DNA from: Candidatus Velamenicoccus archaeovorus
GTDB taxonomy: Bacteria > Omnitrophota > Gorgyraeia > Velamenicoccales > Velamenicoccaceae
NCBI RefSeq assembly: GCF_004102945.1
Contig: NZ_CP019384.1
Span: forward strand, 1,560,001 to 1,592,000
DNA length: 32,000 nucleotides
Direction of reading: 5' to 3'
Position numbers and translations under genes: made by a program. Below the pieces are notes generated by a model. That model saw only the letters and a program-made list of their open reading frames with translations. It did not search any database and was not told the DNA's origin. Each line of letters starts with the position of its first letter. The stretch's first letter is position 1. Below, piece by piece: positions 1,354-29,402 of the stretch.

Positions 1354-2173
1354 AAAAAAGATAGAATTCTCGGGCAGCAAAGAGACGGCCGAACTGCTGG
1401 CCCGCCGCGGTCTCAATACCGTCTGCCGCGAAGCGCGCTGCCCCAACATCTCCGAATGCTACAAGAACCGGCATACGACATTCCTCATCTTGGGAAAAGT
1501 ATGCACCCGTTCCTGCGCCTTTTGCCATGTCGCCAAAGGTACCGCCCCGGAACCCCTTGACCCAACGGAACCTCAACGTGTCGCCGCATGCGCCCGAGAG
1601 ATGGGATTGCGCCACGTCGTTGTCACCAGCGTCACGCGCGACGATCTTGCCGATGGCGGCGCCGGCCACTTTGCGCAGACCATAAAGATGCTGCGACAAA
1701 TCTCATCGCAACCCACCATTGAAGTCCTCGTGCCGGACTTCCAGGGAAACAGGGATGCCGTCGCCGCCGTTGCCGCCAACACGCCCGACATCTTCGGGCA
1801 TAATCTGGAGACTGTCCGCCGCCTTTATCACCTGAGGCCAGGGGCGGATTACAGGCGTTCCCTCGACGTCCTCGCCTCGGCTAAAAAGAAAAACGCACGC
1901 CTCAAAACAAAAACAGCCCTCATGCTGGGGTTGGGAGAAACGCAGAGTGAAGTCACGGAGGCATTCCGTGACTTAAAAAGCGTGGATTGCGACTTTCTGG
2001 CGCTGGGGCAATATCTGAGACCGGACAAAAAAAATACCGAGGTCAAGGAATATCTCCCCCCCGGAATGTTTGAAGAGTACTGCCGGATCGCCCTCTCTCT
2101 GGGCTTCCTCCATGTCGAAAGCGCGCCTTACGTGCGCAGCTCATACCATGCAGGATCTTATCTAAAGCCTTAA
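1322..2173 (+). CDS. lipA: Lipoyl synthase
   Basis: Carries both LipA cysteine motifs: CREARCPNISEC (auxiliary cluster) and CTRSCAFC (radical SAM CxxxCxxC). The conserved C-terminal SSY is present. Confidence 0.95.
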   Translation: MPIERRPPWLKKKIEFSGSKETAELLARRGLNTVCREARCPNISECYKNRHTTFLILGKVCTRSCAFCHVAKGTAPEPLDPTEPQRVAACAREMGLRHVVVTSVTRDDLADGGAGHFAQTIKMLRQISSQPTIEVLVPDFQGNRDAVAAVAANTPDIFGHNLETVRRLYHLRPGADYRRSLDVLASAKKKNARLKTKTALMLGLGETQSEVTEAFRDLKSVDCDFLALGQYLRPDKKNTEVKEYLPPGMFEEYCRIALSLGFLHVESAPYVRSSYHAGSYLKP

Positions 2174-4046: not shown

Positions 4047-4532
4047 TCATAAACTCGTCAGCTCCGCGTATCTTTCGGGAAATCTGTAACCGCGCCACGT
4101 GATGACGCCCTCTTTGTTGATGATCAAAAAGACGGGGACACCGCCGATATCGTAAATGTCGCAGATTTTCCCATCCTCATCCAAGAGGACAGGGAAAGGA
4201 AGGCCTTGCTTGCCGGCGAAACTTGCGACCTTGGCGGCCGCTTCCTTCTTGTTCACGGCCAGGACCTCAAAACCCTCCTTCTCCAATTTCTGATATCTCT
4301 CCTTGAGATTATTGAGCTCGAACGGACAATAAAGGCCGTTCGTCTTCCAGAACATGATGATGACGTTCTTTTTGTCCTTGTAATCGGAAAGCGAAACCGT
4401 CCGTCCTGCTGTCGATACCAACGTAAAATCCTGCGCCAGCTTCCCTTCGCCTGCGGCCGCCATCAAATCCTGGAAAGACAACACCAGAAGAAACCCCAAA
4501 AAAACCATACCTATCGCTATTTTTACTTTCAT
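4047..4532 (-). CDS. Exported thioredoxin-fold redoxin (AhpC/TSA-TlpA-like) with a single active-site Cys
   Basis: ATG preceded by GGAGGAG. There is a signal-like N-terminus, and the redoxin layout FTLVS..G..VSLSDYK.K.VIIMFW....CP.E...L has CPFE in place of CxxC. Confidence 0.75.
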   Translation of the reverse strand: MKVKIAIGMVFLGFLLVLSFQDLMAAAGEGKLAQDFTLVSTAGRTVSLSDYKDKKNVIIMFWKTNGLYCPFELNNLKERYQKLEKEGFEVLAVNKKEAAAKVASFAGKQGLPFPVLLDEDGKICDIYDIGGVPVFLIINKEGVITWRGYRFPERYAELTSL

Positions 4533-4610
4533 ACCATCTCCTCCTGCAACACCATAATTTCGGTTAAAGCTATTCCCTTTGGCGGCTTTTAAAAAACCGG
4601 CTCACCACGC

Positions 4611-4982
4611 CTACTTTTCCGAAGAATCCTCAAGATCCTTATCCTCCTGCGTCGCTTCGCCGCCTGCGCTCTCCTTCTTCGTTTCAGTCTTTTTGGTCCG
4701 GATGGCGCGATATTCCCTTTTGATGGACGCCAGGTCTCTCTTCAACCGGGCGGTATCCTGGCTCAGTCTCTCTTTGGCAAGCTTGACCGCCTGGGGGTTA
4801 TTGGCTTTCTTGGCCGCTGCCAGTAATCTGCGATCGATAGCAATGGCCTGCCTATCCGAAATAATGACGGGGTTCTTGTTGACGTCAGGCGCTTGCGCGC
4901 AGACGCGCGCCGGCCAGGCCGCCATAAGAAATAATACGGCCAGCATGACTACTTTTTGTCCGAAATATTCCCCCCTGCCCAT
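4611..4982 (-). CDS. Secreted hypothetical protein with a Lys/Glu-rich C-terminus
   Basis: The track ORF extends to 5027. The ATG at 4982 has AAGGAG upstream and yields a signal peptide (VVMLAVLFLMAAWPARVCAQA). No family recognised. Confidence 0.5.
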   Translation of the reverse strand: MGRGEYFGQKVVMLAVLFLMAAWPARVCAQAPDVNKNPVIISDRQAIAIDRRLLAAAKKANNPQAVKLAKERLSQDTARLKRDLASIKREYRAIRTKKTETKKESAGGEATQEDKDLEDSSEK

Positions 4983-5137
4983 AGTGCTCCTTTTCATTTG
5001 CGGCCGCTTTTCCGCCCTTCTTCGCATTTCTTTTTATTATATGCCGATAAAAAATAAAAAGCCAGGATTTAAGCCTTCCGGGCCAACGCCGCATTTTGCC
5101 CCGCTGTGGGACGCCGGACAACATCGACGGAGGGCAC

Positions 5138-5169
5138 AAAAAACGGGGCGGGAAAATCCCGCCCCGTTT
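5138..5169 (-). terminator. Intrinsic terminator after the Cys-rich peptide gene
   Basis: 11-bp GC stem ACGGGGCGGGA/TCCCGCCCCGT with a 4-nt loop, followed on the minus strand by TTTTTT. Confidence 0.8.
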
Positions 5170-5191
5170 GACCAGGCTCGCCGCCAGCTGC

Positions 5192-5413
5192 TTATTTCTT
5201 GCAGCAAGCGCCGCCCTGACAACACTTGGACGCAGCACAGGCGCATGCACCATCCTTGCAGCAAGCGCATGCACAGGCGCAGGCGCCCTTCTGACAGCAT
5301 GCTTCGATGGCACAGCCGCCGCCCTTAGCCCCACAACACTTCCCTTCCGCATAGGCCTGTCCCGTCAACAGAAACAAGGCCATGAACAGCACAAACAAAA
5401 GTGACTTATTCAT
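5192..5413 (-). CDS. Sec-signal-bearing, extremely Cys-rich small protein (metallothionein-like)
   Basis: ATG with AAAGGAG 6 nt upstream. The signal peptide MNKSLLFVLFMALFLLTGQAYA is followed by a 51-aa mature part with 16 Cys (CC pairs and CACACACC). A terminator lies directly downstream. Confidence 0.75.
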   Translation of the reverse strand: MNKSLLFVLFMALFLLTGQAYAEGKCCGAKGGGCAIEACCQKGACACACACCKDGACACAASKCCQGGACCKK

Positions 5414-5448
5414 AGATACTCCTTTGTTATGAATGTTTGAAAAACAAC

Positions 5449-5742
5449 TTATGACGGATCAGCGAGGGCCGGATTCGGGGGATGAAAAACGGTACGGACA
5501 GCCTTGTGTTGATACGCAAACTCCGGCGCCAGCGGGAGTGCGCCGGCCGAAACGAGGCGCGGGGAAAAGACATCCCTTTCTATCTTTGCCGGGCTGACAC
5601 ACACATGAAGACAGGCAAGGATCTTGCAATGGCATGACGCGCAGCAACACGCATGGTCAGGGGCAGAGAAAACAACAGGGATGCCGCCAAAAAAAATGAC
5701 GGCAACCATCAAAATGATCAGGATTTTATGGCGTTTATGCAT
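5449..5742 (-). CDS. Membrane-anchored Cys/His-rich hypothetical protein
   Basis: 97 aa. One N-terminal TM helix is followed by DHACCCASCHCKILACLHVC. It sits 36 nt upstream of the Cys-rich peptide gene on the same strand. No SD was seen, so confidence is modest. Confidence 0.45.
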   Translation of the reverse strand: MHKRHKILIILMVAVIFFGGIPVVFSAPDHACCCASCHCKILACLHVCVSPAKIERDVFSPRLVSAGALPLAPEFAYQHKAVRTVFHPPNPALADPS

Positions 5743-5880
5743 AAAGCAAGTTTAGTATATATCTATCGGGTGCTCAAGCCTTGGTCGACGGACTTCCCTC
5801 ATGGCCCTTCGATCCCAAACTTCGATGAGGCTGCCTCGGGAACTCTTCTCTTTGACCAGCTTCTCCAAATCCGATTAGAA

Positions 5881-6300
5881 TTATTTCAGCCAGTCTTTTA
5901 TTTTTTGCTTAATTTGATCCCTGATCGTTCTTGTTTTTTCCAGCTTTTCATCGTAGGCGCCCTCAAAAGCCGCCGGATCGTCAAAGCCCCAATGAAGTCT
6001 CCTGCCGCTCCCCGGAAATGCCGGACATCTGCCTGACTGCGATTCATCGCAAACTGTGATCACATAATCATATTGCTTGCCCTGCTTGTAAAAATCAAAC
6101 ACACTCTTGGTCTTGTTTTGCGAAATGTCGACCCCGGCTTCCTTCATGACCTCGACAACAATAGGATTCAGCTTGCCTGGCTCAAGACCTGCGCTCTCAA
6201 CATCAAACCTATCCGGCGCCATCTGCTTGAGGAAGGCCTCAGCCATCTGAGACCGGGCGGAGTTGTGGACGCAGACAAACAAGACTTTCTGTTTAGTCAT
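5881..6300 (-). CDS. arsC: Arsenate reductase, LMW-PTPase (thioredoxin-coupled) type
   Basis: The [18 protein letters not shown]-loop (CX5R) and downstream Cys residues are present. The ATG at 6300 overlaps the acr3 stop (ATGACTAA). The track's extension to 6339 starts at a TTG inside acr3. Confidence 0.9.
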
Positions 6301-7339
6301 GAAAATACCTGTTTTTGAATCTGAGGGCGACGCTGACAAGGCTGATGAGCACCGGAACCTCTACGAGAGGCCCGATCACAGCCGCAAACGCCTCGCCCGA
6401 ATTGATCCCAAAGACAGCCACGGCCACCGCGATGGCCAGCTCAAAATTGTTGCTGGCAGCGGTAAAGGCAAGTGTCGATGTTCTGGCGTAACCGGCATGG
6501 ATTTTGACACCCAAATAGAAAGATACCAAAAACATCACAACGAAATATATAAGAAGTGGTACGGCTATGCGCACGACATCAAGGGGGATCTTGACGATAT
6601 ATTCTCCCTTCAAGGAAAACATGACGACGATGGTAAAAAGCAACGCGATGAGGGTGACGGGACTAACCCTGGGAATGAATTTCTTTTCATACCACTCTTT
6701 ACCTTGAAGCCTGATAAGGACAAAACGGGTCATAAGCCCTGCGATAAAAGGGATCCCCAGGTAGATGAAAACGCTCTTGGCGATCTGGGATATCGTGACA
6801 TGCACCGCCATACCGCGAAGACCGAACCAGGTCGGAAGAATTGTAATAAACACCCATGCGTACACGGAGTAAAACAGCACCTGAAATACGGAATTCAGCG
6901 CAACCAGGCCGGCGCAATACTCGGTATCGCCGCGGGCCAGCTCGTTCCACACGATGACCATCGCGATGCAACGCGCCAGCCCGATCATGATCAAGCCGAC
7001 CATATATTGCGGATAATTCCGCAGGAACGCGATCGCCAGCACAAACATCAAAACCGGGCCGATGATCCAGTTCTGGACCAGCGAAAGCCCTAAAACCTTG
7101 TAGTCGCGAAAGACATCTTTCAATTCTTCATACCTGACCTTGGCCAGCGGCGGATACATCATGAGAATCAAACCGATGGCGATCGGAACATTGGTCGTCC
7201 CAACCTGAAACTTATCCCAGAAATTCACGATTTGAGGAAAAAGGTATCCTGACCCGACGCCTACAACCATGGCCAGAAAGATCCAAAGGGTCAACAACCT
7301 GTCCAAAAATGAAAGTTTTCCAACAATGCCATCGCTCAT
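6293..7339 (-). CDS. acr3: Arsenite efflux permease, ACR3 family
   Basis: 348 aa and about 10 TM segments. The N-terminus [21 protein letters not shown]...[22 protein letters not shown] is characteristic of ACR3. It is translationally coupled on both sides. Confidence 0.93.
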
Positions 7340-7641
7340 CTTTTACTCTTTGTTTTAATCTTGCAACATCCGCCCTCGATCTTTATCGCTTTGATGTTGA
7401 CCAAGGCATCGGCTATTTTTTTATGCGCTGAGGCAATAATCCTGGAGAATGTCGGCCGGGAGATCTTCATCAGCTTGGCCGCATCGACTTGCTTCATTTC
7501 TTCAAGATAGGCAAGCCGCATGGCCTCAAACTCATCAATGCTTAAAATAACACCATCGAGCCTGCGTGGCGGTCTGCATTTCGGACGAAAGCACCTCTCC
7601 CCCGGCAAACACTTGACCCATCTTGTCTTTTTCGGCCTCAT
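7336..7641 (-). CDS. DUF134 (UPF0251) family putative DNA-binding protein
   Basis: [11 protein letters not shown]....F.P......[33 protein letters not shown]...[19 protein letters not shown] matches my memory of the DUF134 signature. Its stop overlaps the acr3 ATG (ATGA). Confidence 0.85.
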
Positions 7642-7655
7642 GGACCCCCCGGTAT

Positions 7656-7675
7656 TTATGAACCAATGTTCATAA
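7656..7675. promoter_or_regulatory. Perfect palindrome TTATGAAC-CAAT-GTTCATAA, candidate operator of the DUF134-acr3-arsC operon
   Basis: 8-bp arms with a 4-bp spacer, read directly. It lies 15 nt upstream of the DUF134 ATG. Confidence 0.4.
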
Positions 7676-7749
7676 TTATTTTATCGCGGGATCCTCTTGT
7701 GTCAATGAATTCTGAAAAACGACAAGTATGTACGCAAAAGGACGGCCTC

Positions 7750-7780
7750 AAAAAAAGGACCGCCTTTTTCAAGGCGGTCC
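7750..7780 (-). terminator. Intrinsic terminator of the two-small-ORF unit
   Basis: Stem GGACCGCC/GGCGGTCC with loop TTTTTCAA. An A7 run on the plus strand gives a U7 tail on the minus strand. Confidence 0.8.
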
Positions 7781-7951
7781 TTTCAAGGATTGTCCTTCGT
7801 CGCGCTTCGCTTGCTCAGGACAATGGCGCGCACAACCGAACCACGTCCGATTTATCCGCTATTTTTAAGCTGAATTATCTCCGGCTTCTTGCGCCGCAAT
7901 AAGCAGAAATATATCCGCTCTCAAGAGACGGACATTTCGCCTCTTTAGGAG

Positions 7952-8110
7952 CTAACGTCCTTCGTTTTTATGCTTCGAATAACAATCTTTGCAGTATATC
8001 GGTCGACCATCCCTTGGCTTAAAAGGGACTTCGCACTCTTTCTTGCAATCTGAGCAAATCGCCTTGTGCATCTCCCGCGGACGGCTGAATCCGCCATCTT
8101 GATACCCCAT
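7952..8110 (-). CDS. CxxC-x17-CxxC zinc-ribbon small protein (52 aa; below the ORF-track cutoff)
   Basis: My translation is MGYQDGGFSRPREMHKAICSDCKKECEVPFKPRDGRPIYCKDCYSKHKNEGR. GGAGGG sits 5 nt upstream, and the cysteine spacing is exactly CxxC-17-CxxC. Confidence 0.7.
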   Translation of the reverse strand: MGYQDGGFSRPREMHKAICSDCKKECEVPFKPRDGRPIYCKDCYSKHKNEGR

Positions 8111-8119
8111 TATTCCCTC

Positions 8120-8281
8120 CTATTGTTCACTCTGAAGATCCTGGCTTAAAGGGACCTGCTCGATCTCAGGCGCACCCTCTGCCGCTTTTTTCTCCAGTTT
8201 TCTCCGTTTCTTTTCCTCTGCCTTCTTTTTCCTGGCCAATTCTTTCTGATACTTCTTATACGAATAATTATCTCTGCTCAC
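8120..8281 (-). CDS. Lys/Glu-rich 53-aa hypothetical protein (GTG start)
   Basis: AAGGAG lies 6 nt before the GTG. The sequence is SRDNYSYKKYQKELARKKKAEEKKRRKLEKKAAEGAPEIEQVPLSQDLQSEQ. Its stop TAG is fused to the next gene's SD. Low complexity, so low confidence. Confidence 0.4.
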   Translation of the reverse strand: MSRDNYSYKKYQKELARKKKAEEKKRRKLEKKAAEGAPEIEQVPLSQDLQSEQ

Positions 8282-8360
8282 GATGTGCTCCTTACTTGGA
8301 AACCTTCTGCTTATATGCCCTATCTAGCGACTTGAGATGAATATGGCAATAGGCTTCGTG

Positions 8361-8388
8361 ATTATAAATGCTTAAAATATTTTTGCAA
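8361..8388 (-). promoter_or_regulatory. Sigma70-like promoter for the two small ORFs
   Basis: On the minus strand: TTGCAA, a 16-nt spacer, then TATAAT. Confidence 0.5.
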
Positions 8389-8437
8389 CCAGGAAACTTG
8401 CATCTCCTGCCCTTATGCGAAGTCATTATTTTTTTCA

Positions 8438-9736
8438 TCAGCTAAAGATACCCTCTTGCGCCAGCCAACGCATGCTGCGGTTATGCCGCAACCAGTCTTT
8501 GACGATCTTATGGCCCATAAGGCGAAGGAATGCATTCCTGAAATGCAATCTGACAAATAAAACCAGGGTGTTGTAAACGGAATAAAACCTGGCATAAGCC
8601 TTGAGCACATTCATCTGAAGCTCCCGGGCGGATAATAATTTAGGAGCGAAAACAATGTGCTGCCCGTCGTAGAGCGACCAATCTCTGCTGAAAATACGTT
8701 TCTGTTTTTCTAGCTCCTCGTACACCTTGGTCCCGGGCAAAGGAGTCAGGATCATCATTTGGATGGTATCGATTTTGTGCCTGACCGCGAAGCGCAGCGT
8801 GTCCCACACTGTTTTCTTGTCATCATCATCGCCGCCTAAAACAAACATCCCGTGGATTTTAATCTTTTTTTTGTGGAAAGACCCTATGGCATGGATGATC
8901 TCTTCAATCGTCTGTTTCTTATCATACGCCTCGAGGGTTTTATGATTAACGGACTCAAAACCTATGCATGCGGTATTACATCCGGCGCGGGCCATGAGTG
9001 CAAGCAAACTTTCATCTTTTGCGGCATCGCAGCGCACCTGACAAGCCCAATGGCGCTTCTTCATCCGGACAAGAAACTCCAAGAGCTGGCGTGTGCGCTT
9101 TGGGTTCGCGGTAAAGTTGTCATCGCAGAAAAAGATATTCTTGGACCGTACGGCCAGCAGTTCCTTTCTGATATTTTCGGCGCTGCGGAAACGATACGTC
9201 CTGCCAAACATCTTGGTCACGGAACAAAAACTGCAGTCAAAAGGGCAGCCGCGCGATGTCAAAACAGGAGTGATAAAAGCGGGCAGACGGTAACCTTTAA
9301 TCAAAGAAAAATCCGGGTAAGGCAATAGATCTAAATTTTCAACTGGTTTGCCGTATACAATTTCATCCCGAACCTCGCCGTTGACGATGTCTCCGATGAC
9401 CCCCTCGGCCTCACCGACGACCACCTGCCGGGCAAATCTCCTGGCCTCCTGCGGCACAAGACTTGCATGCACCCCGCCTATAATGACTTTCTCTTTGGGG
9501 AATTTTCTGGCAATCTCATAGCCGCGGTTAGCGGTGGCGGTCAAAATAGAGATTCCGATGATATCGGCTTTGATGCCGGCATAGTCAGGGGTATAAATGT
9601 CTTCCTTGTAGATCTCGACCTCATGCCCCTGGTTCTTTAGGATCGTTCCCAAATACACCGGACCCAGCAACGGCATGGAAATCTTGCTATAGACATTGGC
9701 GATCGTTGAACCTGGCTCTATGAGGACTATCTTCAT
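8438..9736 (-). CDS. B12-binding domain radical SAM protein (class B)
   Basis: The N-terminal Rossmann-like cobalamin-binding region (KIVLIEP...DIIGISILTA...IIGGVHAS) is followed by SRGCPFDCSFC (CxxxCxxC). Confidence 0.9.
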   Translation of the reverse strand: MKIVLIEPGSTIANVYSKISMPLLGPVYLGTILKNQGHEVEIYKEDIYTPDYAGIKADIIGISILTATANRGYEIARKFPKEKVIIGGVHASLVPQEARRFARQVVVGEAEGVIGDIVNGEVRDEIVYGKPVENLDLLPYPDFSLIKGYRLPAFITPVLTSRGCPFDCSFCSVTKMFGRTYRFRSAENIRKELLAVRSKNIFFCDDNFTANPKRTRQLLEFLVRMKKRHWACQVRCDAAKDESLLALMARAGCNTACIGFESVNHKTLEAYDKKQTIEEIIHAIGSFHKKKIKIHGMFVLGGDDDDKKTVWDTLRFAVRHKIDTIQMMILTPLPGTKVYEELEKQKRIFSRDWSLYDGQHIVFAPKLLSARELQMNVLKAYARFYSVYNTLVLFVRLHFRNAFLRLMGHKIVKDWLRHNRSMRWLAQEGIFS

Positions 9737-10151: not shown

Positions 10152-13100
10152 TCAGGCCTCTAAGTCTCTCTTCTTCCACAACAAATAGATGGCGGGATAG
10201 ACGACGAGTTCCATGATGAACGAAGTGAATATCCCCCCAACCATGGGAGCGGCAATGCGTTTCATGACATCAGCGCCAGCTTCATAGGTTTGCGCCCACA
10301 TAATGGGCAAAAGGCCGATAAATAAAACACAGGCCGTCATCATCTTGGGCCTCACTCTTTTCACTGCACCATGAAGAATAGCTTCTTTGAGATGACCGAC
10401 GGTCTTCATCATGCCTCTTTTTTTCATATCCTCATAGGCAAGATCAAGATAAAGAAGCATGAATATCCCAGTTTCCGCATCAACACCCAATAGCGCGATG
10501 ATACCGGCCCATACGCCTATGCTCAAATTATAGTGCAGGAAAACCAAAATCCAGGCAACGCCTATGAGGGAAAAAGGAACTGCCAGTAAAATGATGAACG
10601 TCTTGGCAAAGCTGCCGGTATTCAAATGCAACAGGAAGAAAATAATAAGGAGCGTCAGCGGCACAACGATCTTCATTCTCTCTTTGACCCGTTCCATAAA
10701 CTCATACTGACCGCTGAAAACAAGGGAATAACCTGCCGGTAATGTCAAATTTTTCTTTAAGATCTCTTTAGCTTCGTTCACGTAACTGCCAATATCCCTG
10801 TCAGCCACGTCGATATAGACATAGCCTGCCAACGAGCCGTTTTCATCCCTGATCATCGCTGGACCTGTCGTTACTTCTATATCGGCAAGCTGCGCAAGAG
10901 GAATATTGGCGCCCAAAGACGTGGGAATATAGACATTTTTAAGTTTTTCAATATCGTCCCTCAATTCACGCGGGTAGCGCACATTGACAGGGAACCGCTC
11001 CCTCCCCTCTATGGTTTGGGTGATATTCTCGCCGCCAACAGCAGTCATCAGAGCTGTCTCTACATCTTCGACAGTCAATCCATAACGGGCAATATCATCT
11101 CTTCTTAATTTGAAGTTGACAAAATAACCTCCAGAAGTCCTTTCCGCATAGATGCTTCGCGTACCTTTGACCTGCCGCAGATGGCCTTCAACTTCAGTCC
11201 CGATTTTTTCAATCTTTCCGAGATCATCCCCGTAAATCTTTATCCCAACAGGAGTACGCACACCTGTGGTCAACATATCGACTCTTGCCTTGATAGGCAT
11301 AGTCCATGCGTTAACCTGGCCTGGCAACTCAAGCTTTTCATTCATCTCTTTAATAAGGTCATCCCAGGAAATCCTGTCAGGCCAGATTATCCGTAAAGGC
11401 GATTTTAAGAATTCAGGCAGAATACTTGAATACCACCGGTGCTTAGGCCGCCATTCATTCTGGGGCTTTAAGACAACGACTGTTTCCATCATGGAATACG
11501 GCGCCGGGTCCGTTGAGGTAGCGGCGCGGCCTGCTTTTCCGAAAACCGTCACAACTTCTGGAAAAGTTTTTAAAATCTTATCCTGAATCATAAGAAGTTT
11601 TGTCGCCTCTGTGACGGAGATCCCAGGGGGGGTCGTCGGCATATAAAGGATGGTGCCTTCATTCAAAGGCGGCATAAATTCTTTACCGAGGCTAAAAAAG
11701 ACCGGTACCGTCAGCAGGAAAACCAAGACAGCCGAACCAATAATGGCTCGCGGCTTCTTCAAAACGAATTGGACAACAGGTTCGTAGAATTTAAACAGCC
11801 TTTTACTGATAGGGTGCTTCTCTTCAGAATGGATCCTTCCCACAAGAACATGGTTGACGATAACACAGAGCCATTTTGGCCTAAAACTATAGAAATCAAG
11901 ACGCGTAAAAAGCAATCGTATGGCCGGGTCTAATGTTATGGCAAGAAGTGCTGCAAAAAATATGGCAAATGTCTTGGTAAAGGCGAGCGGCTTAAAAAGC
12001 CTTCCTTCAAATCCTTCCAGGGTGAATATGGGTATAAAAGAAACCGCGATGACGAGAAGTGAAAAGAAAGATGGCCTCCCCACTTCTTTGACAGCATTGA
12101 TGATGACTTCTTTATAATCCCCTTTTCTTCCTTCCTCTTGCCAGTGTGAAAGTTTTTTGTGGGCATTCTCAACGACAACAATGGCGCCGTCCACCATGGC
12201 GCCTATGGCAATAGCGATACCGCCCAAGCTCATGATATTTGAAGTCAGCCCCATAAGATACATCGGGATAAATGCAATAATAACGGCAATGGGCAATGTC
12301 ACAATAGGGATAATGGCCGATGGGATGTGCATTAAAAAGACTAGAATAACAAGGCTGACAACGATCATTTCTTCAATGAGCTTCCGTTTCAAGGTATCGA
12401 CTGATCTTAATATGAGATCTGACCTGTCGTAGGTGGTCACCAGCCTGACTCCGTCAGGAAGCTTGACATCATGAAGTTTCTTTTTGACGCGCTCAATGAC
12501 TTTAAGTGCATTTTCTTTATATCTCATAACAACTATGCCGCCGACCACCTCGCCTTTGCCGTCCAGCTCGGCAACGCCCCGGCGGATATCAGGCCCGAAT
12601 TGCACCAACGCGACGTCTTTAATCTTGACCGGCACTCCGTCCTTACCGACTTTAAGCACGACTTCCTTAATATCATCCAGCGAAGAAATATATCCTCGCA
12701 CGGTCACCATGTATTCCTTGCCGGAAAATTCCAGGAGCCTGGCGCCGACTTCCTGGTTGGATTTTTTAAGCGCCATCATCACATCATTGATGGAAATACC
12801 TGTGGCAACCAGGGCATCGGGATTAACGAGAACCTGATACTGTTTGACAAAGCCGCCGACGCTGGCGACCTCGCTGACGCCTTTGACGGACTGGAGCGCA
12901 TATTTAAGGTGCCAGTTCTGAAAAGTCGTCAAATCCTGGAGGGAATGTTTGCCGGATTCATCAACAAGCGCGTACTCAAAAACCCAGCCGATGCCCGTGG
13001 CATCGGGGCCGAGCTCGACCTGCACATCCTTTGGCAGTTGTGGCGTGACTTTAGAAAGATATTCCAGGACTCTTGAACGCGCCCAGTAGATATCAGTCCC

Positions 13101-13403
13101 CTCGTCAAAGATGCAATAGACGTAAGAAAATCCGTAATCTGAAAAACCGCGGATATCTTTTATCTTGGGAGCGCCGAGAAGCGATGAAACAATTGGGTAA
13201 GTGACCTGGTCCTCAATGACCTGCGGAGGCCTGTCCCATTTTGCGTAAACGATGACCTGCGTATCAGAAGGGTCTGGGATAGCGTCGAGGGGGATATTTC
13301 TTATGGCGACGATGCCGCCAACGACAGCCACGCCCACCATAATAAAAACAATGAGCTTATTTTTGGCGCAAAACTCTATGATCCTGTCTATCAAGCTACC
13401 CAT
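10152..13403 (-). CDS. cusA: Cu(I)/Ag(I) efflux RND permease, CusA type
   Basis: Collinear with my memory of E. coli CusA (GFS..G.SYVY.IF.EGTD.YWARSRVLEYL; LGPDATG.GW..EYALVD.SGKH). The three transport Met contexts are conserved (LYMPTT, SMMETV, VDMLTTG). The ATG at 13403 is preferred over the track's TTG at 13406. Confidence 0.95.
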   Translation of the reverse strand: MGSLIDRIIEFCAKNKLIVFIMVGVAVVGGIVAIRNIPLDAIPDPSDTQVIVYAKWDRPPQVIEDQVTYPIVSSLLGAPKIKDIRGFSDYGFSYVYCIFDEGTDIYWARSRVLEYLSKVTPQLPKDVQVELGPDATGIGWVFEYALVDESGKHSLQDLTTFQNWHLKYALQSVKGVSEVASVGGFVKQYQVLVNPDALVATGISINDVMMALKKSNQEVGARLLEFSGKEYMVTVRGYISSLDDIKEVVLKVGKDGVPVKIKDVALVQFGPDIRRGVAELDGKGEVVGGIVVMRYKENALKVIERVKKKLHDVKLPDGVRLVTTYDRSDLILRSVDTLKRKLIEEMIVVSLVILVFLMHIPSAIIPIVTLPIAVIIAFIPMYLMGLTSNIMSLGGIAIAIGAMVDGAIVVVENAHKKLSHWQEEGRKGDYKEVIINAVKEVGRPSFFSLLVIAVSFIPIFTLEGFEGRLFKPLAFTKTFAIFFAALLAITLDPAIRLLFTRLDFYSFRPKWLCVIVNHVLVGRIHSEEKHPISKRLFKFYEPVVQFVLKKPRAIIGSAVLVFLLTVPVFFSLGKEFMPPLNEGTILYMPTTPPGISVTEATKLLMIQDKILKTFPEVVTVFGKAGRAATSTDPAPYSMMETVVVLKPQNEWRPKHRWYSSILPEFLKSPLRIIWPDRISWDDLIKEMNEKLELPGQVNAWTMPIKARVDMLTTGVRTPVGIKIYGDDLGKIEKIGTEVEGHLRQVKGTRSIYAERTSGGYFVNFKLRRDDIARYGLTVEDVETALMTAVGGENITQTIEGRERFPVNVRYPRELRDDIEKLKNVYIPTSLGANIPLAQLADIEVTTGPAMIRDENGSLAGYVYIDVADRDIGSYVNEAKEILKKNLTLPAGYSLVFSGQYEFMERVKERMKIVVPLTLLIIFFLLHLNTGSFAKTFIILLAVPFSLIGVAWILVFLHYNLSIGVWAGIIALLGVDAETGIFMLLYLDLAYEDMKKRGMMKTVGHLKEAILHGAVKRVRPKMMTACVLFIGLLPIMWAQTYEAGADVMKRIAAPMVGGIFTSFIMELVVYPAIYLLWKKRDLEA

Positions 13404-13431
13404 CAAACACCGCTTTCTTTAAAGAAAGGTG

Positions 13432-14700
13432 TTATTGCTGATGCTGGTGAGTTTGCGTGGCTGCGGGTGCTTTCAATTGGCTCTCTGAATCCACAAAGAA
13501 ATTGCCGGAGGAGACAACGTTCTCTCCTTCCGTCAAGCCGGAAAGCACTTCGTAATACTTTTCAGCTTTTGTTCCTAGCGTGACATCACGGGAGTCGAAA
13601 TATCCTTCCGGAGTCGCAACAAAGACGATTTTGCGCTCTCCTGTATCGATCACCGCATCCTCAGGCACAGCTAATTTTTCGCCGATGTCTATCTTTATCA
13701 TCGCGGAAACAAACATTTCTGGTTTCAACTTATCATCGGGATTCTTTATTTCTACGCGCACCTGATTAGTGCGGGTTGCGGCATCCAAAACAGGATTGAC
13801 GGAAGCAACCTGGCCCTGGAATACCTCGCCCGGATAAGCAACGGCCTCAATATCCACAGGCATGCCAACTTTGATAAGCCCTATCTCATATTCATAAACA
13901 GAAACATACGCCCACACATTTTCGCCTTTGGCTGGCAGATACAGGTTCGTCTGCGCTTTCCGCGTCTTTTCAAGTTCGGCAATCTGGTCGTCGCTCATAC
14001 CCTTCAATTTCAGCTTCTGGCGGGCTGCATCTGTGACGGATTTAGCGCGGTCAATAACGTCCTGCAGAGGAGAATCTTTTGTCTCGTCCTGCACTTTAAG
14101 CGCCTGGATGAATTCTTCCTGGGTCACAACAAGCTCGGGATCATAGGCGATCTTGCCAGAGGCGTGAACGATCTTTACAAGGTCTCTTTTCGTAACAGGC
14201 GAAACGCTAATCCCCATCAGTTTCTGCTTTTCAGGGCTGATAGAAACGCCTTCGGGATGCGCAGCTCCTTCCTCCTCATAAACAGGAACATACTCCATGC
14301 CCATAGAATCTTTCATAGGCACGGGTGACGTGACTTGCGGATTCATCGGATTACGATAAGCGATAATTTTGCGCTCTTCTTTGGCTGCTGCATTTTTTTC
14401 TTCAGCAACCGGGACGATTTTGCTATTTTCCGTCGTGATATATTCACCGCAAATAGGACACTTTATTCTCTCGCCGGGCTTCAGATGTACTCTTACCTGC
14501 ATCCCGCATTGATGCATAGGACATTTATGTTCCAGGCAAACTTCCTGCGGAGTCTTGCCTTGAGAGGAAGAAACATCTTGCATGGCAGTCATCGAATCAT
14601 GACGCATCTGTTCCCCAGCCGCCATAGAATGATATGCCAATAAAGCTATACTCAAGGCAACTAAAATAACAATGATCAATAAAGGATTATTTCTTTTCAT
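13432..14700 (-). CDS. cusB: RND periplasmic adaptor, CusB-like, with an N-terminal metal-binding region
   Basis: Signal anchor, a Met-rich stretch, a Cys motif (HKCPMHQC...IKCPICG) and YRNPMNP...KDSMGMEYVPVY, followed by a barrel-sandwich/beta-barrel adaptor body. The ATG at 14700 has AGAGG upstream. Confidence 0.88.
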   Translation of the reverse strand: MKRNNPLLIIVILVALSIALLAYHSMAAGEQMRHDSMTAMQDVSSSQGKTPQEVCLEHKCPMHQCGMQVRVHLKPGERIKCPICGEYITTENSKIVPVAEEKNAAAKEERKIIAYRNPMNPQVTSPVPMKDSMGMEYVPVYEEEGAAHPEGVSISPEKQKLMGISVSPVTKRDLVKIVHASGKIAYDPELVVTQEEFIQALKVQDETKDSPLQDVIDRAKSVTDAARQKLKLKGMSDDQIAELEKTRKAQTNLYLPAKGENVWAYVSVYEYEIGLIKVGMPVDIEAVAYPGEVFQGQVASVNPVLDAATRTNQVRVEIKNPDDKLKPEMFVSAMIKIDIGEKLAVPEDAVIDTGERKIVFVATPEGYFDSRDVTLGTKAEKYYEVLSGLTEGENVVSSGNFFVDSESQLKAPAATQTHQHQQ

Positions 14701-15964
14701 AAGCAACCTCTTTTACTTGTGAACCGTCAAGATCTGTTCCGATGGCGCGCTCTAAGTCCGCCAGAGCGACTTTAAGCTCAAGAATGGCATTATAGTGTTT
14801 GAGTTTGAAATCGATGAGCATTCTTCGGCTGTCCAAGAGCGTGAGAAAATCAGACTGATTGGATTCGTAACCTTTGAGCGATGCCTCCAACGTCTCTTCT
14901 GCTTGAGGCAAAAACGACGTCTCGTAAAGTTCTATTAATTTTTTATTCGCTTCCACGCGCGCATAAGCATCCCTGACATCAAAAAGCACGGCCTTCTCTT
15001 TGGCAGCATACTCGGCCTTTACCATCTCGAGCTCTGACTTCATCTCTTTAACGCCAAAAGCCTGTTTTTGGAAAAACCATAACGGGACGGTAACACCCAC
15101 CATTCCCGCCCAAGACTTTTCATCATTCATCATCTGTTTATACGTCACTCTGAAATCAGGCAAAAATTCATTTTGGGCGAGATGATAAGCTGCCTGGCCC
15201 TTATCTATGGCATAGCGATAGGCTTTCAGCTCAGGATTATTTTGTTTAGCGAGAGCATAGCAATCTTGCAGTGTCTGACTGAATTTTATCGTCTCGCCGG
15301 CAGAAGGTGCGCCGAGCTCATCTTGAGGGTCTCTATTCAGAAGAACATTTAATCTGCCTTGGGCTGTCAGGCGTCTTTGCTCAAGCATAACAAGCTCTGT
15401 GTCAACGCTTGCCAGCTCCACCTGCGCTTTCAAAACATCCGCCTGGGGACCTTCTCCTGTTTTATACCGCGAGACGGCTGATTGTGAAAGTTGCTCTAAA
15501 ATACTTTTGTCTTCTTTGTTAACTTCAATCTCTCGATAAATCACAAAAAGTTCTGCATAGGCGCTCTTGACTTGGGAGATGATTTCTTTTTCTTTGGCCT
15601 GATAGTTCTCATAGGCCATTTTGGCGAGCTTTGAGGCAACCTTAGCGCGCAAAAAAAGCTTAGTCGGAAAAGGGATATCCTGTGATATCTCGTAGGTCTT
15701 CATGGGCTCGCCTGTCAGCATCCTGTCAGCGGTCATCTTATCATAGCCGACCGAAAACATGGGATCAGTAAGGCTTGCCGCCTGCCAAATACGTGCGTTC
15801 GCAGCCTCATACGACCTTTTGGCGGACAAAATCTCAGGATTCGCCTCTAAGGCCTCATTCATGGCCCTCTTCAAGTCCAGTTCTTCGGCTGCCGTGATAA
15901 CAGAGTCGAATAAGAAAAAAACAAACAAAACAATTATTGCAACACTTATTTTTCTATTTTTCAT
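14687..15964 (-). CDS. cusC: TolC-family outer membrane factor of the cus operon
   Basis: Two TolC repeats. The ATG at 15964 gives a signal peptide (MKNRKISVAIIVLFVFFLF...AAE). The track's extension to 16102 runs through the putative promoter. Confidence 0.85.
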   Translation of the reverse strand: MKNRKISVAIIVLFVFFLFDSVITAAEELDLKRAMNEALEANPEILSAKRSYEAANARIWQAASLTDPMFSVGYDKMTADRMLTGEPMKTYEISQDIPFPTKLFLRAKVASKLAKMAYENYQAKEKEIISQVKSAYAELFVIYREIEVNKEDKSILEQLSQSAVSRYKTGEGPQADVLKAQVELASVDTELVMLEQRRLTAQGRLNVLLNRDPQDELGAPSAGETIKFSQTLQDCYALAKQNNPELKAYRYAIDKGQAAYHLAQNEFLPDFRVTYKQMMNDEKSWAGMVGVTVPLWFFQKQAFGVKEMKSELEMVKAEYAAKEKAVLFDVRDAYARVEANKKLIELYETSFLPQAEETLEASLKGYESNQSDFLTLLDSRRMLIDFKLKHYNAILELKVALADLERAIGTDLDGSQVKEVAYEKK

Positions 15965-16019
15965 GTTATTGTTATAACATAACTGCAAACAGTTATTGAA
16001 TTTCAACCGAACTGTCCCC

Positions 16020-16049
16020 ATTATACTCCGACAAAAATAAGAAAGCCAA
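16020..16049 (-). promoter_or_regulatory. Putative sigma70 promoter of cusCBA
   Basis: On the minus strand: TTGGCT, an 18-nt spacer, then TATAAT. Confidence 0.45.
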
Positions 16050-16063
16050 GACATTATGTCTTG
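16047..16063. promoter_or_regulatory. Palindrome CAAGACA-TTA-TGTCTTG overlapping the -35 (candidate operator)
   Basis: Perfect 7-bp arms read directly. A second palindrome, ATAACTG-CAAA-CAGTTAT, lies in the 5' UTR at 15979-15996. Confidence 0.35.
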
Positions 16064-16144
16064 ACTGGATTGGTTGGCCGCCCGTATAAGAGGAACGTAC
16101 ATTGAGAAACGGGAACCGTTCAGGACCCTATTCTATGTCATATT

Positions 16145-16827: not shown

Positions 16828-18270
16828 TTAAATAAACGCCTCGCCCTTCAAGAAACATTCCTCTGCCTTGGATGCAACTTCCATATAATTACGGCAACAA
16901 GCAGCCACTAAAGGACTGGAGTATCCATGAAGCATTCTTTGAATCCGTTTTTGCTTGGAATAAAACTCTCTATTCATCCATGCAGCCAAACGATTAATTT
17001 CTTCTCTTGAAAGATATTTTGTAGGCATTAAAGCATGGGCCATATCAAAAAAACGGAAATCTTTTATTTCCAGTCTCGGGCTATCCTTTAATTCATCCCA
17101 CAGGTCTGTCCCCGGATAAGGAACAAGGATATCGACAGTCATTAAATCGGGGTCCAACTCGTCCAATAGTTGGGCACGACGCTTGATTATCGCCTCATCA
17201 TCATCCCAAAAACCGATCATTATAGTTCCACAAGTAGCTATATCATTTCTGCGCAACTCATCAATACCATGTTTAATTTCGGATATGGTGATATTCTTAC
17301 CCATAGACTTTAGCTTTTCGTCAGTCTCGGCCTCTACGCCGACTAGGGTCAAAATACAACCGGCTTTTCTCATCTTGGGAAATAACCCAATCTGTTTAGC
17401 GAATGCATCGGCCCTGCCTAAAAACATCCAAGAAAAATGCAAATCTCTTTTTATGACTTCATCGCAGAATTCTTCGATACGTTCAGCCTGATTATTAAAT
17501 TCATCATCCTGGATATCAAACATTTGGACGCCGTATTTCGTGACCAAAAGTTCGGCCTGATCGGCTATGCGTTTGCCGGAAAGACCTCTCCAAATGCCAA
17601 CATTTTCTTTCATTCTCTTATCGTACTGTTGCCATTGAACGCAGAAGCTGCACCTGCCAGAACAACCTCTACTGGTTACTATCCGCACGGCCCTTGGCCA
17701 GTAAGAATAATGAACATACTTTTCTATCGGAAATAAATGGTAAGCAGGAAGCGGCAAAGAATCTAAATCTTTGATGAGACAGCGTGGCTGGGTTAAGACA
17801 ACCTTGCCATTTTTTCTATAGCCTAAACCGTTTATTTTGTCGTAATCAGGGCTTCTTTTTTTAGATTCTTCTAAAAATTCCAAGAGGGTATTTTCACCTT
17901 CTCCGACAACAACAAAATCAATCTCCGGATGTTCCTTTAGGGATTCAATAGGCATAGCATTAAAATGCATTCCCCCGCAGAGAATTTTTATATCTGGAAA
18001 TCTCTTTTTAATCTGCTGGGCTGCCTCATATACGCAATGAACCCAAGTCGTACCGCACCCCATGCCGATAATATCGGGCTTAATCGTATTGATCTCATCC
18101 AACATCTGCTGATGAGTATATTCATAAGCTGGACAGTCCAAAACAGCGACCTCGACATCCGACTTCTCAAGTAAATAAGCGGCCAATTGGGCATATCCAG
18201 GATAGATAGATTTCATTCTTCCAAAATAAACCCACATACCCATAGGCGGGGTCAAAAATAATATCTTCAT
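16828..18270 (-). CDS. B12-binding domain radical SAM protein (class B)
   Basis: ATG with GAGGA upstream. The cobalamin-binding N-domain (KILFLTPP...DIIGMGCGT...ILCGGMH) is followed by SRGCSGRCSFC (CxxxCxxC). Confidence 0.9.
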   Translation of the reverse strand: MKILFLTPPMGMWVYFGRMKSIYPGYAQLAAYLLEKSDVEVAVLDCPAYEYTHQQMLDEINTIKPDIIGMGCGTTWVHCVYEAAQQIKKRFPDIKILCGGMHFNAMPIESLKEHPEIDFVVVGEGENTLLEFLEESKKRSPDYDKINGLGYRKNGKVVLTQPRCLIKDLDSLPLPAYHLFPIEKYVHYSYWPRAVRIVTSRGCSGRCSFCVQWQQYDKRMKENVGIWRGLSGKRIADQAELLVTKYGVQMFDIQDDEFNNQAERIEEFCDEVIKRDLHFSWMFLGRADAFAKQIGLFPKMRKAGCILTLVGVEAETDEKLKSMGKNITISEIKHGIDELRRNDIATCGTIMIGFWDDDEAIIKRRAQLLDELDPDLMTVDILVPYPGTDLWDELKDSPRLEIKDFRFFDMAHALMPTKYLSREEINRLAAWMNREFYSKQKRIQRMLHGYSSPLVAACCRNYMEVASKAEECFLKGEAFI

Positions 18271-21900: not shown

Positions 21901-22200
21901 TTAAGTCATCTCCTCAAGCGGTAAAACAAATGCCTTTACGCCTTCTTTGCCCAATTTCTTGCGCAATTCTTTAACATACAAAATGAGCTGCCTTGCTTCA
22001 TTGTCTTGACAGGCCGCGTATAAAATATTGTTCCTGCCGGGCCAGATGTCATCGCCTAAATGCGTGCCGCTGGTTTCGCCCTTACCAAAGACTCCTTTTA
22101 TCTTAGTGTAATTCTTCACCCCGCAACTCTCCAAAATCTCCATTACTTCATCGTCAATCGCTTCATTATAGGTAATCATTGTCATCATCATCGTCATCAT
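21901..22200 (-). CDS. Small P-II-like RND transporter-associated protein (resembles the DUF3240 / PG0541-type families, from memory)
   Basis: 99 aa with a Met/Thr-rich start, then ITYNEAIDDEVMEILESCGVKNYTKIKGVFGKGETSGTHLGDDIWPG. Its ATG overlaps the RND stop (ATGA). Confidence 0.6.
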   Translation of the reverse strand: MMTMMMTMITYNEAIDDEVMEILESCGVKNYTKIKGVFGKGETSGTHLGDDIWPGRNNILYAACQDNEARQLILYVKELRKKLGKEGVKAFVLPLEEMT

Positions 22201-25200: not shown

Positions 25201-25343
25201 ATGACGGAAATCGACGGCGGCTCAATCTCCGGCATAGAATCTATTCCTAAGCGGGTCAGGCTGTATAATGCCAAAATAATAATCGCCGAAAAAATCATTA
25301 TATTCGTAACCGGCCTTTTTACGCCAAATTCCGGTAAGTTCAT
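22197..25343 (-). CDS. RND multidrug efflux permease (AcrB/HAE1-like)
   Basis: 1048 aa with 12-TM RND architecture. The N-terminus is FGVKRPVTNIMIFSAIIILALYSLTRLGIDSMPEIEPPSISVISTYEGASPEDVE. AGGAGG RBS. Confidence 0.95.
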   Translation of the reverse strand: MNLPEFGVKRPVTNIMIFSAIIILALYSLTRLGIDSMPEIEPPSISVISTYEGASPEDVEIKVSEPLENQLATTPGIEKITSRSLEGLSVVTLKFVWGTNLDEASNDIRDRIERAKRFLPDIPDEMDTPFIFKFNTAMFPILMVGITAEQSYPELFDMIDKRVGDPLRQIPGVGTVQLNGGLERQINIWIDRHKLEGYGFSILDVQDVLAKENVTQPAGSIKSGFTDYLLRVPGEFATPDEINSVILGKRNGNLVYLKDVARVEDSFKEVTNIVRINRHQGLLMMIQKQTGTNTVEVANRVKKKMDELQKTLPKDVKMYPVMDSSHDIINSLNSLKSTVWVGGILVILVVWFFLRQFLPSLVIALTIPFSLLIAFIYLFLSGKTINTISLSSLTIAIGMVVDNAIVVVDNIHRHLERGQRLQEASIFGTSEMFLAIAASTLTTVVVFLPLIFITGVVGIMFGELAIIVIVTLLASLFTAVTFTPMLASKWMGVNNGQAKAKFKWFSKFYQISEHWFKSWEEFYRKCLAWCLGHKKIVIFGFLGAFIFSLFLTRFVGNEFIPEQDSGDLRTTVNLPIGTRLEETDKVATKIEDIFKEEAPEEKFMYVRSGLTTGVGAVFGGQSGTHITSGGAKLVPKTERKRSVKEIAQVIRNRIRQIPGVLKTDITTGSPIGRIITGTAGKQVQVEIIGHSFEDTNTVAQKIKEIMEKIPGAIDISISRELNRPELRIEVYREKAAALGLNMRTIADSIKTFVEGATATKYREKGETYDIYVRLEEQFRAKPEDVENLSIVSPFTGKQIKLSTVARVYETAGPIEIERKNRERVLRVECNTYKRSMGKVIEDIKKSLKKITIPSDIVINFGGEAEEQGKAFKDLILLLLLGIALVYMVMAAQFESLLDPFIIMFAIPFTFTGVILGFILTGTTLSVITFLGMVMLMGIVVNNAIVLVSYINILRARGLSMLDAVTIGGKERLRPVLMTTITTVAGLLPLALSTGEGSEVWQPLGITMLGGLSLSTLVTMFFVPTLYAVFEAKIRKERLPAGRQGGKKK

Positions 25344-25418
25344 CGAATTCCTCCTATATACAACTGCGAGTAGCCCATTTCTTCAAAAATTTAAAGACTT
25401 ATCATTAAAACGGCCATT

Positions 25419-27136: not shown

Positions 27137-27140
27137 TTCT

Positions 27141-29314: not shown

Positions 29315-29349
29315 TTTGGCCTTTTACCTCTTTAGAGGTATTGCTCAAT

Positions 29350-29369
29350 TAATGAATTATTATTCATTA
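29350..29369. promoter_or_regulatory. Palindromic operator TAATGAAT-TATT-ATTCATTA (likely the TetR site)
   Basis: Perfect 8-bp arms, immediately downstream of the -10 on the minus strand. Confidence 0.55.
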
Positions 29370-29373
29370 TAAA

Positions 29374-29402
29374 AATATATCATTCAATTTCTATTTTGTC
29401 AA
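29374..29402 (-). promoter_or_regulatory. Sigma70 promoter of the tetR-efflux operon
   Basis: On the minus strand: TTGACA, a 17-nt spacer, then TATATT. Confidence 0.6.

Follow-up and report, generated by a model that had tools for sequence, protein, structure and literature searches.

What might a very small bacterium do with an exported peptide in which nearly every third residue is a cysteine? The question is raised by a pair of genes in the 32,000-nucleotide (nt) stretch of the Candidatus Velamenicoccus archaeovorus genome that we analyzed (contig NZ_CP019384.1, positions 1,560,001 to 1,592,000), called the window below and numbered from its first letter. The second gene of the pair encodes a 73-amino-acid (aa) Cys-rich peptide, and the first encodes a 97-aa protein that we call its partner. 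The organism, which GTDB places in class Koll11 of the Omnitrophota, is reported to be an ultramicrobial organism that preys on archaea and bacteria and stems from a methanogenic limonene enrichment (PMC12583861). Neither protein family has been described, and both are absent from Pfam and NCBIfam. Among several hypotheses for the peptide, the best reading of its sequence is that of a thiol-based binder of soft metals or metalloids.

Two real genes in a conserved cassette

The peptide gene (Table 1) encodes MNKSLLFVLFMALFLLTGQAYA|EGKCCGAKGGGCAIEACCQKGACACACACCKDGACACAASKCCQGGACCKK, where the bar separates the signal part from the mature part. Codons 1-22 (nt 5413-5348) make up the signal, with cleavage at AYA|EG, and the 51-aa mature peptide contains 16 Cys (31%), five CC pairs, and neither His nor aromatic residues. 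The 16 Cys form four units: CC-x6-C, CC-x4-C-x-C-x-C, CC-x4-C-x-C and CC-x4-CC. An earlier reading of the window from its letters alone (hereafter the sequence-only reading) had given the same open reading frame (ORF), the same 22-aa signal and the same Cys count, all of which were borne out, and the strong Shine-Dalgarno sequence (AAGGAG) and terminator (hairpin and T-run) that it ascribed to the gene were likewise located. The terminator search placed the hairpin site at 5166..5149, and a folding energy of about -30 kcal/mol was computed on a 48-nt stretch that includes a short upstream stem. In RefSeq the peptide is entered as hypothetical protein WP_128700394.1.

We examined coding constraint by a Nei-Gojobori count of the window genes against close relatives (L001-L006, comprising five metagenome contigs and one metagenome-assembled genome). 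The ratio of nonsynonymous to synonymous differences (pN/pS) for the peptide gene was 0.06-0.11 at pS 0.40-0.55, which indicates strong purifying selection, and 16/16 Cys codons were kept through frequent exchange of TGT and TGC. For the partner gene, pN/pS was about 0.36 at pS 0.27-0.37. Low ratios, together with Cys residues of the peptide that survive codon swaps, establish both genes as protein-coding in these frames, and peptide and partner are therefore real coding genes.

Two other explanations of the peptide ORF were considered and rejected. The first, that it is a GC-rich shadow ORF, had already been doubted in the sequence-only reading and is ruled out by the selection test (dN/dS, with the values and kept Cys codons given above). 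Since the constraint lies in the peptide frame, it is the overlapping ORFs on both strands that are the shadows; these long ORFs (4579-5328(+), 4885-5352(-) and 5096-5404(+)) exist because the peptide gene is rich in TGC and GCA (Cys/Ala) codons. The second, a Cys-codon attenuation leader, fails because conservation extends to the signal peptide and to residues other than Cys, and because the gene is the 3'-terminal one of its unit, just before the terminator.

The pair was then compared across contigs of seven distant members and 23 further metagenome loci, where we searched the DNA that precedes each peptide gene. At 75% peptide identity these loci group into 24 lineages, 23 of which are assessable, the contig of the remaining one (L017) being too short upstream. 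In 22 of the 23, the peptide gene is preceded on the same strand, at 30-57 nt, by a partner ORF of 94-109 aa, and these ORFs are homologous to the 97-aa protein of the window (hmmsearch E 1e-17 to 1e-44), so that the co-occurrence which the sequence-only reading had proposed to check in other genomes is found. The spacing in the window is 35 nt, one less than first reported. Downstream of the peptide gene, 23/24 lineages have a strong hairpin with a T-run. The locus is thus a self-contained, terminator-closed two-gene cassette characteristic of the phylum Omnitrophota. A scan of GTDB genomes with the partner alignment returned one close relative only (L006), because its search patterns were derived from the Velamenicoccus clade. 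Annotation often misses the cassette: gene finders skipped the partner in five of the first seven distant loci (L007, L009, L013, L014 and L016), and in L004 (590-802) the gene caller picked an opposite-strand shadow ORF over the peptide gene.

Published expression data bear on the region. Table S1 of PMC12583861 lists coding sequences (CDS) in genome order, and the flanking genes could be mapped to it by accession. The 138-aa ORF next to the pair is probably QAT17545, to judge by gene order (38.5 transcripts per million (TPM), unseen in the proteome). Between QAT17545 and ArsC (QAT17548), three CDS without GenBank mapping have metatranscriptome TPM of 20.2, 5.7 and 11.7, rows that are not attributable individually to peptide or partner; the values for the neighboring ArsC, Acr3 and redoxin genes are comparable, at 12.8, 16.3 and 11.1, respectively (PMC12583861). 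The redoxin, QAT17544, was also detected in the metaproteome (PMC12583861). The region around the pair is therefore transcribed in the enrichment culture, and the data say no more than that.

The two protein families and their counterparts

A word-indexed search with the peptide matched a single cluster. When 1.8 billion representatives were scanned exhaustively with HMMER, a dozen proteins of 68-85 aa built like the peptide were recovered, and a profile search then enlarged the family to about 32 clusters of 68-85 aa. All members with a named organism are Omnitrophota, and the viral contigs searched held no relatives. After the signal peptide the family has the Cys frame CC-x5/6-C-x4-CC-x4-C-x-C-x3-CC-x4-C-x-C, usually built on the repeat unit CCxDGKCxCKGx, and in an alignment of 33 peptides 8 Cys are invariant and 7 more nearly so; relatives with conserved Cys spacing, whose existence the sequence-only reading had made a test of its proposal, therefore exist. 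The N-termini of all members, judged by rule, have a Lys-containing n-region, an uncharged stretch of 13-22 residues and an AxA-type site. Given this canonical signal, the peptide is predicted to be Sec-exported; its own N-terminus, MNKSLLF..., has no twin-arginine motif.

Mature family peptides are 45-51 residues long, with 12-16 Cys, and are rich in Lys, Gly and Ala. Among the 32 distinct ones, 25 have 15 Cys, three have 16, three have 14 and one has 12. Phe, Trp and Tyr are absent from all 32, His occurs in two, and in each of them Lys outnumbers Asp plus Glu, so that all are net cationic, with Lys flanking the CC and CxC motifs. An odd number of Cys (15) makes complete intramolecular disulfide pairing impossible, and the lack of hydrophobic residues in the mature peptide rules out a conventional core. 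AlphaFold2, run on the 33-sequence alignment, returned a predicted local distance difference test score (pLDDT) of 56, with no defined fold or predicted helices in the mature part. Pfam and NCBIfam scans of all 33 peptides at permissive E-values gave nothing meaningful, the peptide alignment, used as a profile against PDB sequences, had 0 matches at E<=10, and neither protein family was found described in our literature searches.

In the window, the partner begins with a hydrophobic N-terminus, followed by DHACCCASCHCKILACLHVC; it carries the Cys cluster DHxCxCxSCxCKILACLxxC and a conserved C-terminal RTVFHPPNP, in which FHPP is invariant in the family. A hydrophobic N-terminus, a Cys cluster, an aromatic-rich stretch and the F-H-P-P near the C-terminus recur across lineages, the typical cluster being HQDCSCC-x3-C-x5-CH-x5-C-x-C, with 6-7 Cys and, in most of them, 2-3 His. 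In the Velamenicoccus clade, both His of the Cys stretch vary (H->S/G and H->Y/N) and CCC becomes CSC, while 6 Cys are kept. The description of the partner as Cys/His-rich in the sequence-only reading therefore holds for Cys but not for those two His. Its description as membrane-anchored is doubtful, since most homologues show a hydrophobic core of 13-16 residues followed by an AxA-type site, E-x-x-Y-A|[SND] (for example AYA|N or VYA|D), and most partner N-termini look like cleaved signal peptides. That of the window partner is ambiguous, with 22 uncharged residues, a GG-IP break and candidate sites at VFS|A or FSA|P; partner cleavage sites, like those of the peptide, were judged by rule.

Scans of 23 partners against Pfam and NCBIfam at permissive E-values gave nothing significant; the FeoB-associated Cys-rich membrane protein family (PF12669) was matched weakly by 3/23, with a best E of 0.016. 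AlphaFold2 on three partner sequences gave pLDDT 51. DUF6660 (PF20365), which occurs in Bacteroidota, resembles the partner in its length of about 100 aa, its N-terminal hydrophobic helix, its central Cys/His cluster and its C-terminal aromatic-x-P-P-basic motif (IWQPPK vs. IFHPPK), a comparison made with two probe sequences that Pfam recognizes as DUF6660 (E 4e-15 and 4e-10) and that are not curated members. Membership of the partner in DUF6660 was rejected, as hhalign aligned only 11 C-terminal columns (56% probability) and PF20365 was found in 0/23 partners at E<=10; the resemblance stands as a lead. Literature on the function of DUF6660 was searched for and none was found.

The start of the partner gene shows no Shine-Dalgarno sequence in the window. 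The stretch before it (5742-5777(-)) has a weak promoter-like arrangement, TTGAGC, 17 nt and TAAACT, that ends 6 nt before the ATG and received no score in a consensus promoter scan; in L007 (5620-5670), the partner ATG is preceded at about 15 nt by TATAAT. The mRNA of the partner may have no leader or hardly any.

With metallothioneins (animal MT1/2, SmtA/BmtA and MymT) the peptide shares small size, about 30% Cys, Lys-flanked CC/CxC motifs, an absence of aromatics, almost no His and no predicted ligand-free fold. However, it differs from them in its Sec signal and its conserved small partner, and it has no detectable sequence homology to them. Against the operational marks of a metallothionein (below 10 kDa, with Cys at about 15-30% or more, CC, CxC and CxxC motifs and few or no aromatic and His residues), the mature peptide has 51 aa and 31% Cys, along with CC-x4-C-x-C units that are invariant in its family, no aromatics and hardly any His, and no profile of a known family (Metallothio_*, SmtA/BmtA) was matched significantly in Pfam, NCBIfam or the PDB sequences. 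We know of no bacterial metallothionein with an export signal, and SmtA and BmtA use His and a zinc-finger-like fold. Metallothioneins fold only on metal binding, around metal-thiolate clusters, and an overview figure places them among the cytosolic Cu binders (PMC7558416).

Csp1, the copper storage protein of methanotrophs, offers a different likeness, being an exported, Cys-lined store for soft metals that shows thiolate stores to exist outside the cytoplasm in bacteria (PMC7558416). It is, however, a pre-folded four-helix bundle (more than 100 aa in Csp proteins) that forms a tetramer and is exported by Tat, whereas the peptides described here have 45-51-aa mature parts, no predicted helices and a Sec-type signal; the window peptide in particular has a mature part of 51 aa, no helices outside the signal, no twin-arginine and no Pfam match. 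Bufferins are likewise small, periplasmic Cys peptides with Sec signals, and they bind copper (PMC11626156). They need MNIO and DUF2063 proteins, and few of their Cys become thiooxazoles, whereas neither gene lies near the pair and the Cys density is far higher here. The precursor of the window peptide does carry a Sec signal (by rule) but no adjacent MNIO/DUF692 and DUF2063 genes, and these were absent, as the sequence-only reading had stated, from all window ORFs of at least 150 aa and from the related loci. SCIFF peptides, ranthipeptides and sactipeptides are defined by an adjacent SPASM maturase, which was seen near the pair only in L013, after the terminator, and in none of the other approximately 14 lineages with readable flanks. 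The periplasmic metal sponges PcoE and SilE, likewise small and exported, are natively disordered and acquire a fold when several Cu(I) or Ag(I) ions bind. Their ligands are Met and His, which suit an oxidizing periplasm; this peptide family uses Cys only. The predicted mature peptide thus resembles metallothioneins in composition and Csp1, PcoE/SilE and bufferins in placement, and it belongs to none of these families, since no profile matches and the partners (MNIO, DUF2063) or folds (four-helix bundle) that define them are absent. The distinction from SmtA/BmtA, Csp and bufferins drawn in the sequence-only reading stands on the same grounds.

What the pair may do

We tentatively propose, at somewhat less than an even chance, that the peptide serves outside the cytoplasm as a thiolate ligand of soft metals or metalloids and that the partner acts on it. 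The mature peptide would be natively unfolded and metallothionein-like. It would fold only around soft ions (for instance Cu(I), Zn(II), Cd(II), Fe(II) or As(III)), which it would buffer or hand on where these very small cells live, in anoxic and sulfidic surroundings. Loading, unloading or docking of the peptide would fall to the Cys/His cluster of the partner, which would be exported with it. The Cys content, the motifs, the lack of aromatics and the lack of a predicted fold are metallothionein-like hallmarks, and neighboring genes are repeatedly related to thiols or soft metals (Acr3-ArsC, ArsP, CsoR, Feo, NifSU, TetR-RND and the redoxin).

Gene neighborhoods were counted over about 15 lineages with readable flanks. 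Their dominant theme is sulfide assimilation, followed by thiol, iron-sulfur and soft-metal biology. In nine of these lineages, Rrf2-MetY-CysK-MetX-MetW lies upstream and/or Thi4, ThiM, ThiE or ThiG is adjacent. NifS-NifU is immediately upstream in L011; FeoB-DtxR/FeoA or FeoA-FeoB is found in L014, L020 and L034; CsoR ends 4 nt before the partner in L013; TetR and RND components occur in L025, and DUF134-ArsP-methyltransferase lies downstream in L030. Elongation factor G (EF-G) is the neighbor in L007 and an amino-acid permease in L038. In the Velamenicoccus clade, Acr3-ArsC is upstream in the window, L005 and L006 (the last assigned by similarity to the window proteins), and pstSCAB-phoU is upstream in L001. 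Arsenic genes therefore stand beside the pair in two lineages, this clade and L030, each time with a DUF134 gene. The link to ars and cus genes emphasized in the sequence-only reading is thus specific to lineage, the commonest neighbors being MetY-CysK-MetX-MetW and Thi4, and a role of the pair as a component of the ars operon was rejected because that context is not conserved.

Several observations weigh against a metal ligand. The commonest neighbors are sulfide-assimilating (MetY, CysK, MetXW, Thi4/ThiG) and fit a role in sulfur handling at least equally, and since several of the Cys/Met-linked loci share neighbors at 77-87% identity, the loci are related to one another and the context counts are not independent. 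Metal binding, the identity of the metal and the role of the partner are what we infer from the sequences: binding is argued from composition, and the partner role is pure inference. The export of both proteins is a judgment by rule. No homology to metallothionein families was detected, Pfam Metallothio_6 alone being matched, by 2/33 members at E 0.16, in a scan at E<=10 and BLASTP with human MT2A giving low-complexity matches only (E 0.41). None of the three CDS between QAT17545 and ArsC was in the metaproteome, in which small Cys-rich peptides are hard to detect. Finally, one lineage (L037) has the peptide without the partner. In that locus (5794-6222) the peptide starts 24 nt after a tautomerase-like ORF, which precedes the partner in L016 and L034; the arrangement suggests that the partner gene was deleted in L037.

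A fuller version of the metal-ligand proposal is, in our view, doubtful. It would make the pair a phylum-specific, Sec-exported metallothionein system in which an unfolded peptide of about 15 Cys and an FHPP-tailed Cys/His partner scavenge thiophilic trace metals, arsenite or iron-sulfide species from anoxic, sulfidic water and deliver them to uptake or efflux systems. Should this hold, the system would have no precedent known to us, either as a natural metallothionein outside the cytoplasm or as a metallothionein with an obligate protein partner. The bacterial metallothioneins known to us from descriptions are all cytoplasmic and rare, and the exported soft-metal binders of which we know are Met/His sponges, folded Cys-lined bundles (Csp1) or modified peptides (bufferins); an unmodified, Sec-exported 30%-Cys peptide with a fixed partner would, if this is right, represent a fourth solution. 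The cassette is conserved across an uncultured phylum of ultra-small, often host-dependent anaerobes, and it would bear on the acquisition or detoxification of thiophilic metals, or on sulfur handling, by such cells in settings where metal availability is set by sulfide. The two new families could also join annotation libraries, as both genes are often missed or mis-called.

The strongest competitor to the metal ligand, though itself unlikely, is extracytoplasmic sulfur handling, in which peptide and partner would capture or carry sulfide or sulfane sulfur as persulfides or polysulfides or provide a cysteine reservoir for adjoining sulfide-dependent enzymes. Neighbors of the MetY, CysK, MetXW, Thi and NifSU types are taken to consume sulfide or cysteine sulfur; the pair directly follows or adjoins such genes in the nine lineages noted above and in L011, and the gap to the upstream gene is often just 36-40 nt, which suggests co-transcription. 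However, the identity shared by neighbors in several loci makes inherited synteny possible, and other lineages have different surroundings (ars, pst, CsoR, EF-G or an amino-acid permease). The export of a 31%-Cys peptide would be an odd way to store cysteine, and the known sulfur carriers SoxYZ, Sud and TusA employ a single reactive Cys in folded domains.

Less probable again is a disulfide-crosslinked component of the envelope or cell surface, with peptide and partner oxidized into intermolecular networks. The analogy is to chlamydial OmcA, a small, exported, Cys-rich lipoprotein that is disulfide-crosslinked and encoded beside a second Cys-rich protein, in a group, the Chlamydiae, regarded as relatives of the Omnitrophota within the PVC group. 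Both proteins of the pair are small, exported and Cys-rich, one thiol stays free for links between molecules when the number of Cys is odd, and an exported redoxin adjoins the pair in the Velamenicoccus clade. However, none of the 33 peptide family members matches Chlam_OMP3 (PF03503) or any other Pfam family, no conserved lipobox precedes the first Cys, and hydrophobic or aromatic residues that could pack a folded disulfide domain are lacking. The habitats are anoxic and reducing, the source being a methanogenic enrichment, and neither protein was detected in the metaproteome, whereas proteins with a structural role tend to be abundant.

It is very improbable that the peptide is the precursor of a RiPP, a peptide made by the ribosome and modified after translation, with its Cys converted enzymatically, for example by a radical-SAM enzyme, and the partner acting as a recognition or scaffold protein. 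Bufferins show that Cys-containing RiPP precursors with Sec signals exist (PMC11626156), and the window holds two B12-radical-SAM genes, which led the sequence-only reading to offer a modified peptide as its alternative. However, these genes lie 3 and 11 kb from the pair, and in L001, the closest relative with long flanks, there is none within 10 kb upstream or approximately 9.7 kb downstream; modification by the B12-radical-SAM enzymes was rejected because the genes are not co-conserved with the pair. More generally, the lineages with readable flanks show no conserved modifying enzyme next to the pair, and DUF692/MNIO and DUF2063 are absent there as well as from the window. The sole SPASM-type radical-SAM gene near the pair, two genes downstream in L013, belongs to one lineage only and comes after the terminator. 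In this L013 locus (6438-8854), past the terminator, lie a 206-aa protein without assignment, the SPASM-type radical-SAM gene (PqqE-like, below cutoffs) and another such protein, which could form a separate peptide-maturation cluster.

With 15 Cys in about 47 residues, the peptides carry more Cys than the defensin-like peptides known to us, which counts against a secreted, cationic, Cys-rich effector or toxin. Directed at the prey or host cells of predatory or epibiotic ultramicrobacteria, such an effector would suit the description of V. archaeovorus as a predator (PMC12583861) and the export and net positive charge of the peptides, but it is the least probable explanation, as hydrophobic and aromatic residues are completely missing from the peptides, the pair has no conserved immunity or transporter genes at its side, and housekeeping-type neighborhoods do not suggest a weapon.

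The surroundings of the pair

The neighbors listed in the sequence-only reading (redoxin, ars genes, a Cus-like RND system and two B12-radical-SAM genes) are present as it stated (Table 1). The window also carries a further HlyD/CusB-type adaptor, an MFS transporter, TetR, MarR, a nitroreductase, an FMN reductase and an HD-domain protein. Together with two CusB-type RND systems, these genes mark the window as an efflux and detoxification island, with the cassette at its edge.

Table 1. Features of the window and their coordinates, ordered by position
Feature	Coordinates	Strand	Basis and remarks
Exported AhpC/TSA-type redoxin (QAT17544)	4047..4532	-	AhpC-TSA 1.4e-25; ResA-like below cutoff
138-aa predicted secreted, coiled-coil-like protein (VNKNPVIISDRQAIAIDRRLLAAAKKANNP...)	4611..5027	-	signal-like N-terminus, charged C-terminal half
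Intrinsic-terminator-like hairpin (GGGGCGGGATTTTCCCGCCCC) and T-run	~5136..5170	-	GC-rich, 3' of peptide gene; closes the two-gene unit
Cys-rich peptide gene	5192..5413	-	73 aa; ORF and conservation; stop TAA at 5194-5192
Shine-Dalgarno AAGGAG of peptide gene	5419..5424	-	read from sequence, 5 nt before ATG
Partner gene (BU251_07365, QAT17547.1)	5449..5742	-	97 aa; 100% identity to QAT17547.1; homologues upstream of peptide gene elsewhere
ArsC (LMWPc; low-molecular-weight protein tyrosine phosphatase (LMW-PTP) type)	5881..6339	-	Pfam
Acr3	6293..7339	-	Pfam
DUF134 protein, predicted helix-turn-helix	7336-7641	-	heads the Acr3-ArsC genes
52-aa CxxC-x17-CxxC treble-clef zinc ribbon	7952-8110	-	TIGR04272, PF23477; between ars genes and B12-radical-SAM gene
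B12-radical-SAM gene	8438..9736	-	family scan
RND system with CusB-like adaptor	10152..16102	-	family scan
B12-radical-SAM gene	16828..18270	-	family scan
Second RND/efflux region	22197-31946	-	family scan

On the downstream side of the pair, the redoxin is conserved in L001 and L002 and is specific to the clade; it could keep exported thiols reduced. The 138-aa protein between redoxin and pair has no Pfam or NCBIfam match. Its homologues lie beside the pair in L001 and L006, within the Velamenicoccus clade only, and are absent from the other lineages, and it is probably outside the core unit.

On the upstream side, the 138-nt gap between ArsC and the partner (5742-5881, minus strand) contains no terminator-like site, which makes co-transcription of the ars genes and the pair possible in this genome. 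TPM values along the region are similar (PMC12583861). In L001 (190-9842), two tandem pstSCAB-phoU sets, the first of which includes an LMW-PTP/ArsC-like gene, replace DUF134-Acr3-ArsC. Compared with the window, this indicates that the slot upstream of the pair holds oxyanion genes for either phosphate or arsenic. In L030, a DUF134 protein (1603-1932(+)) heads an ArsP_1 permease and a SAM-methyltransferase, and DUF134 may be an arsenic-responsive regulator in these genomes, in place of ArsR.

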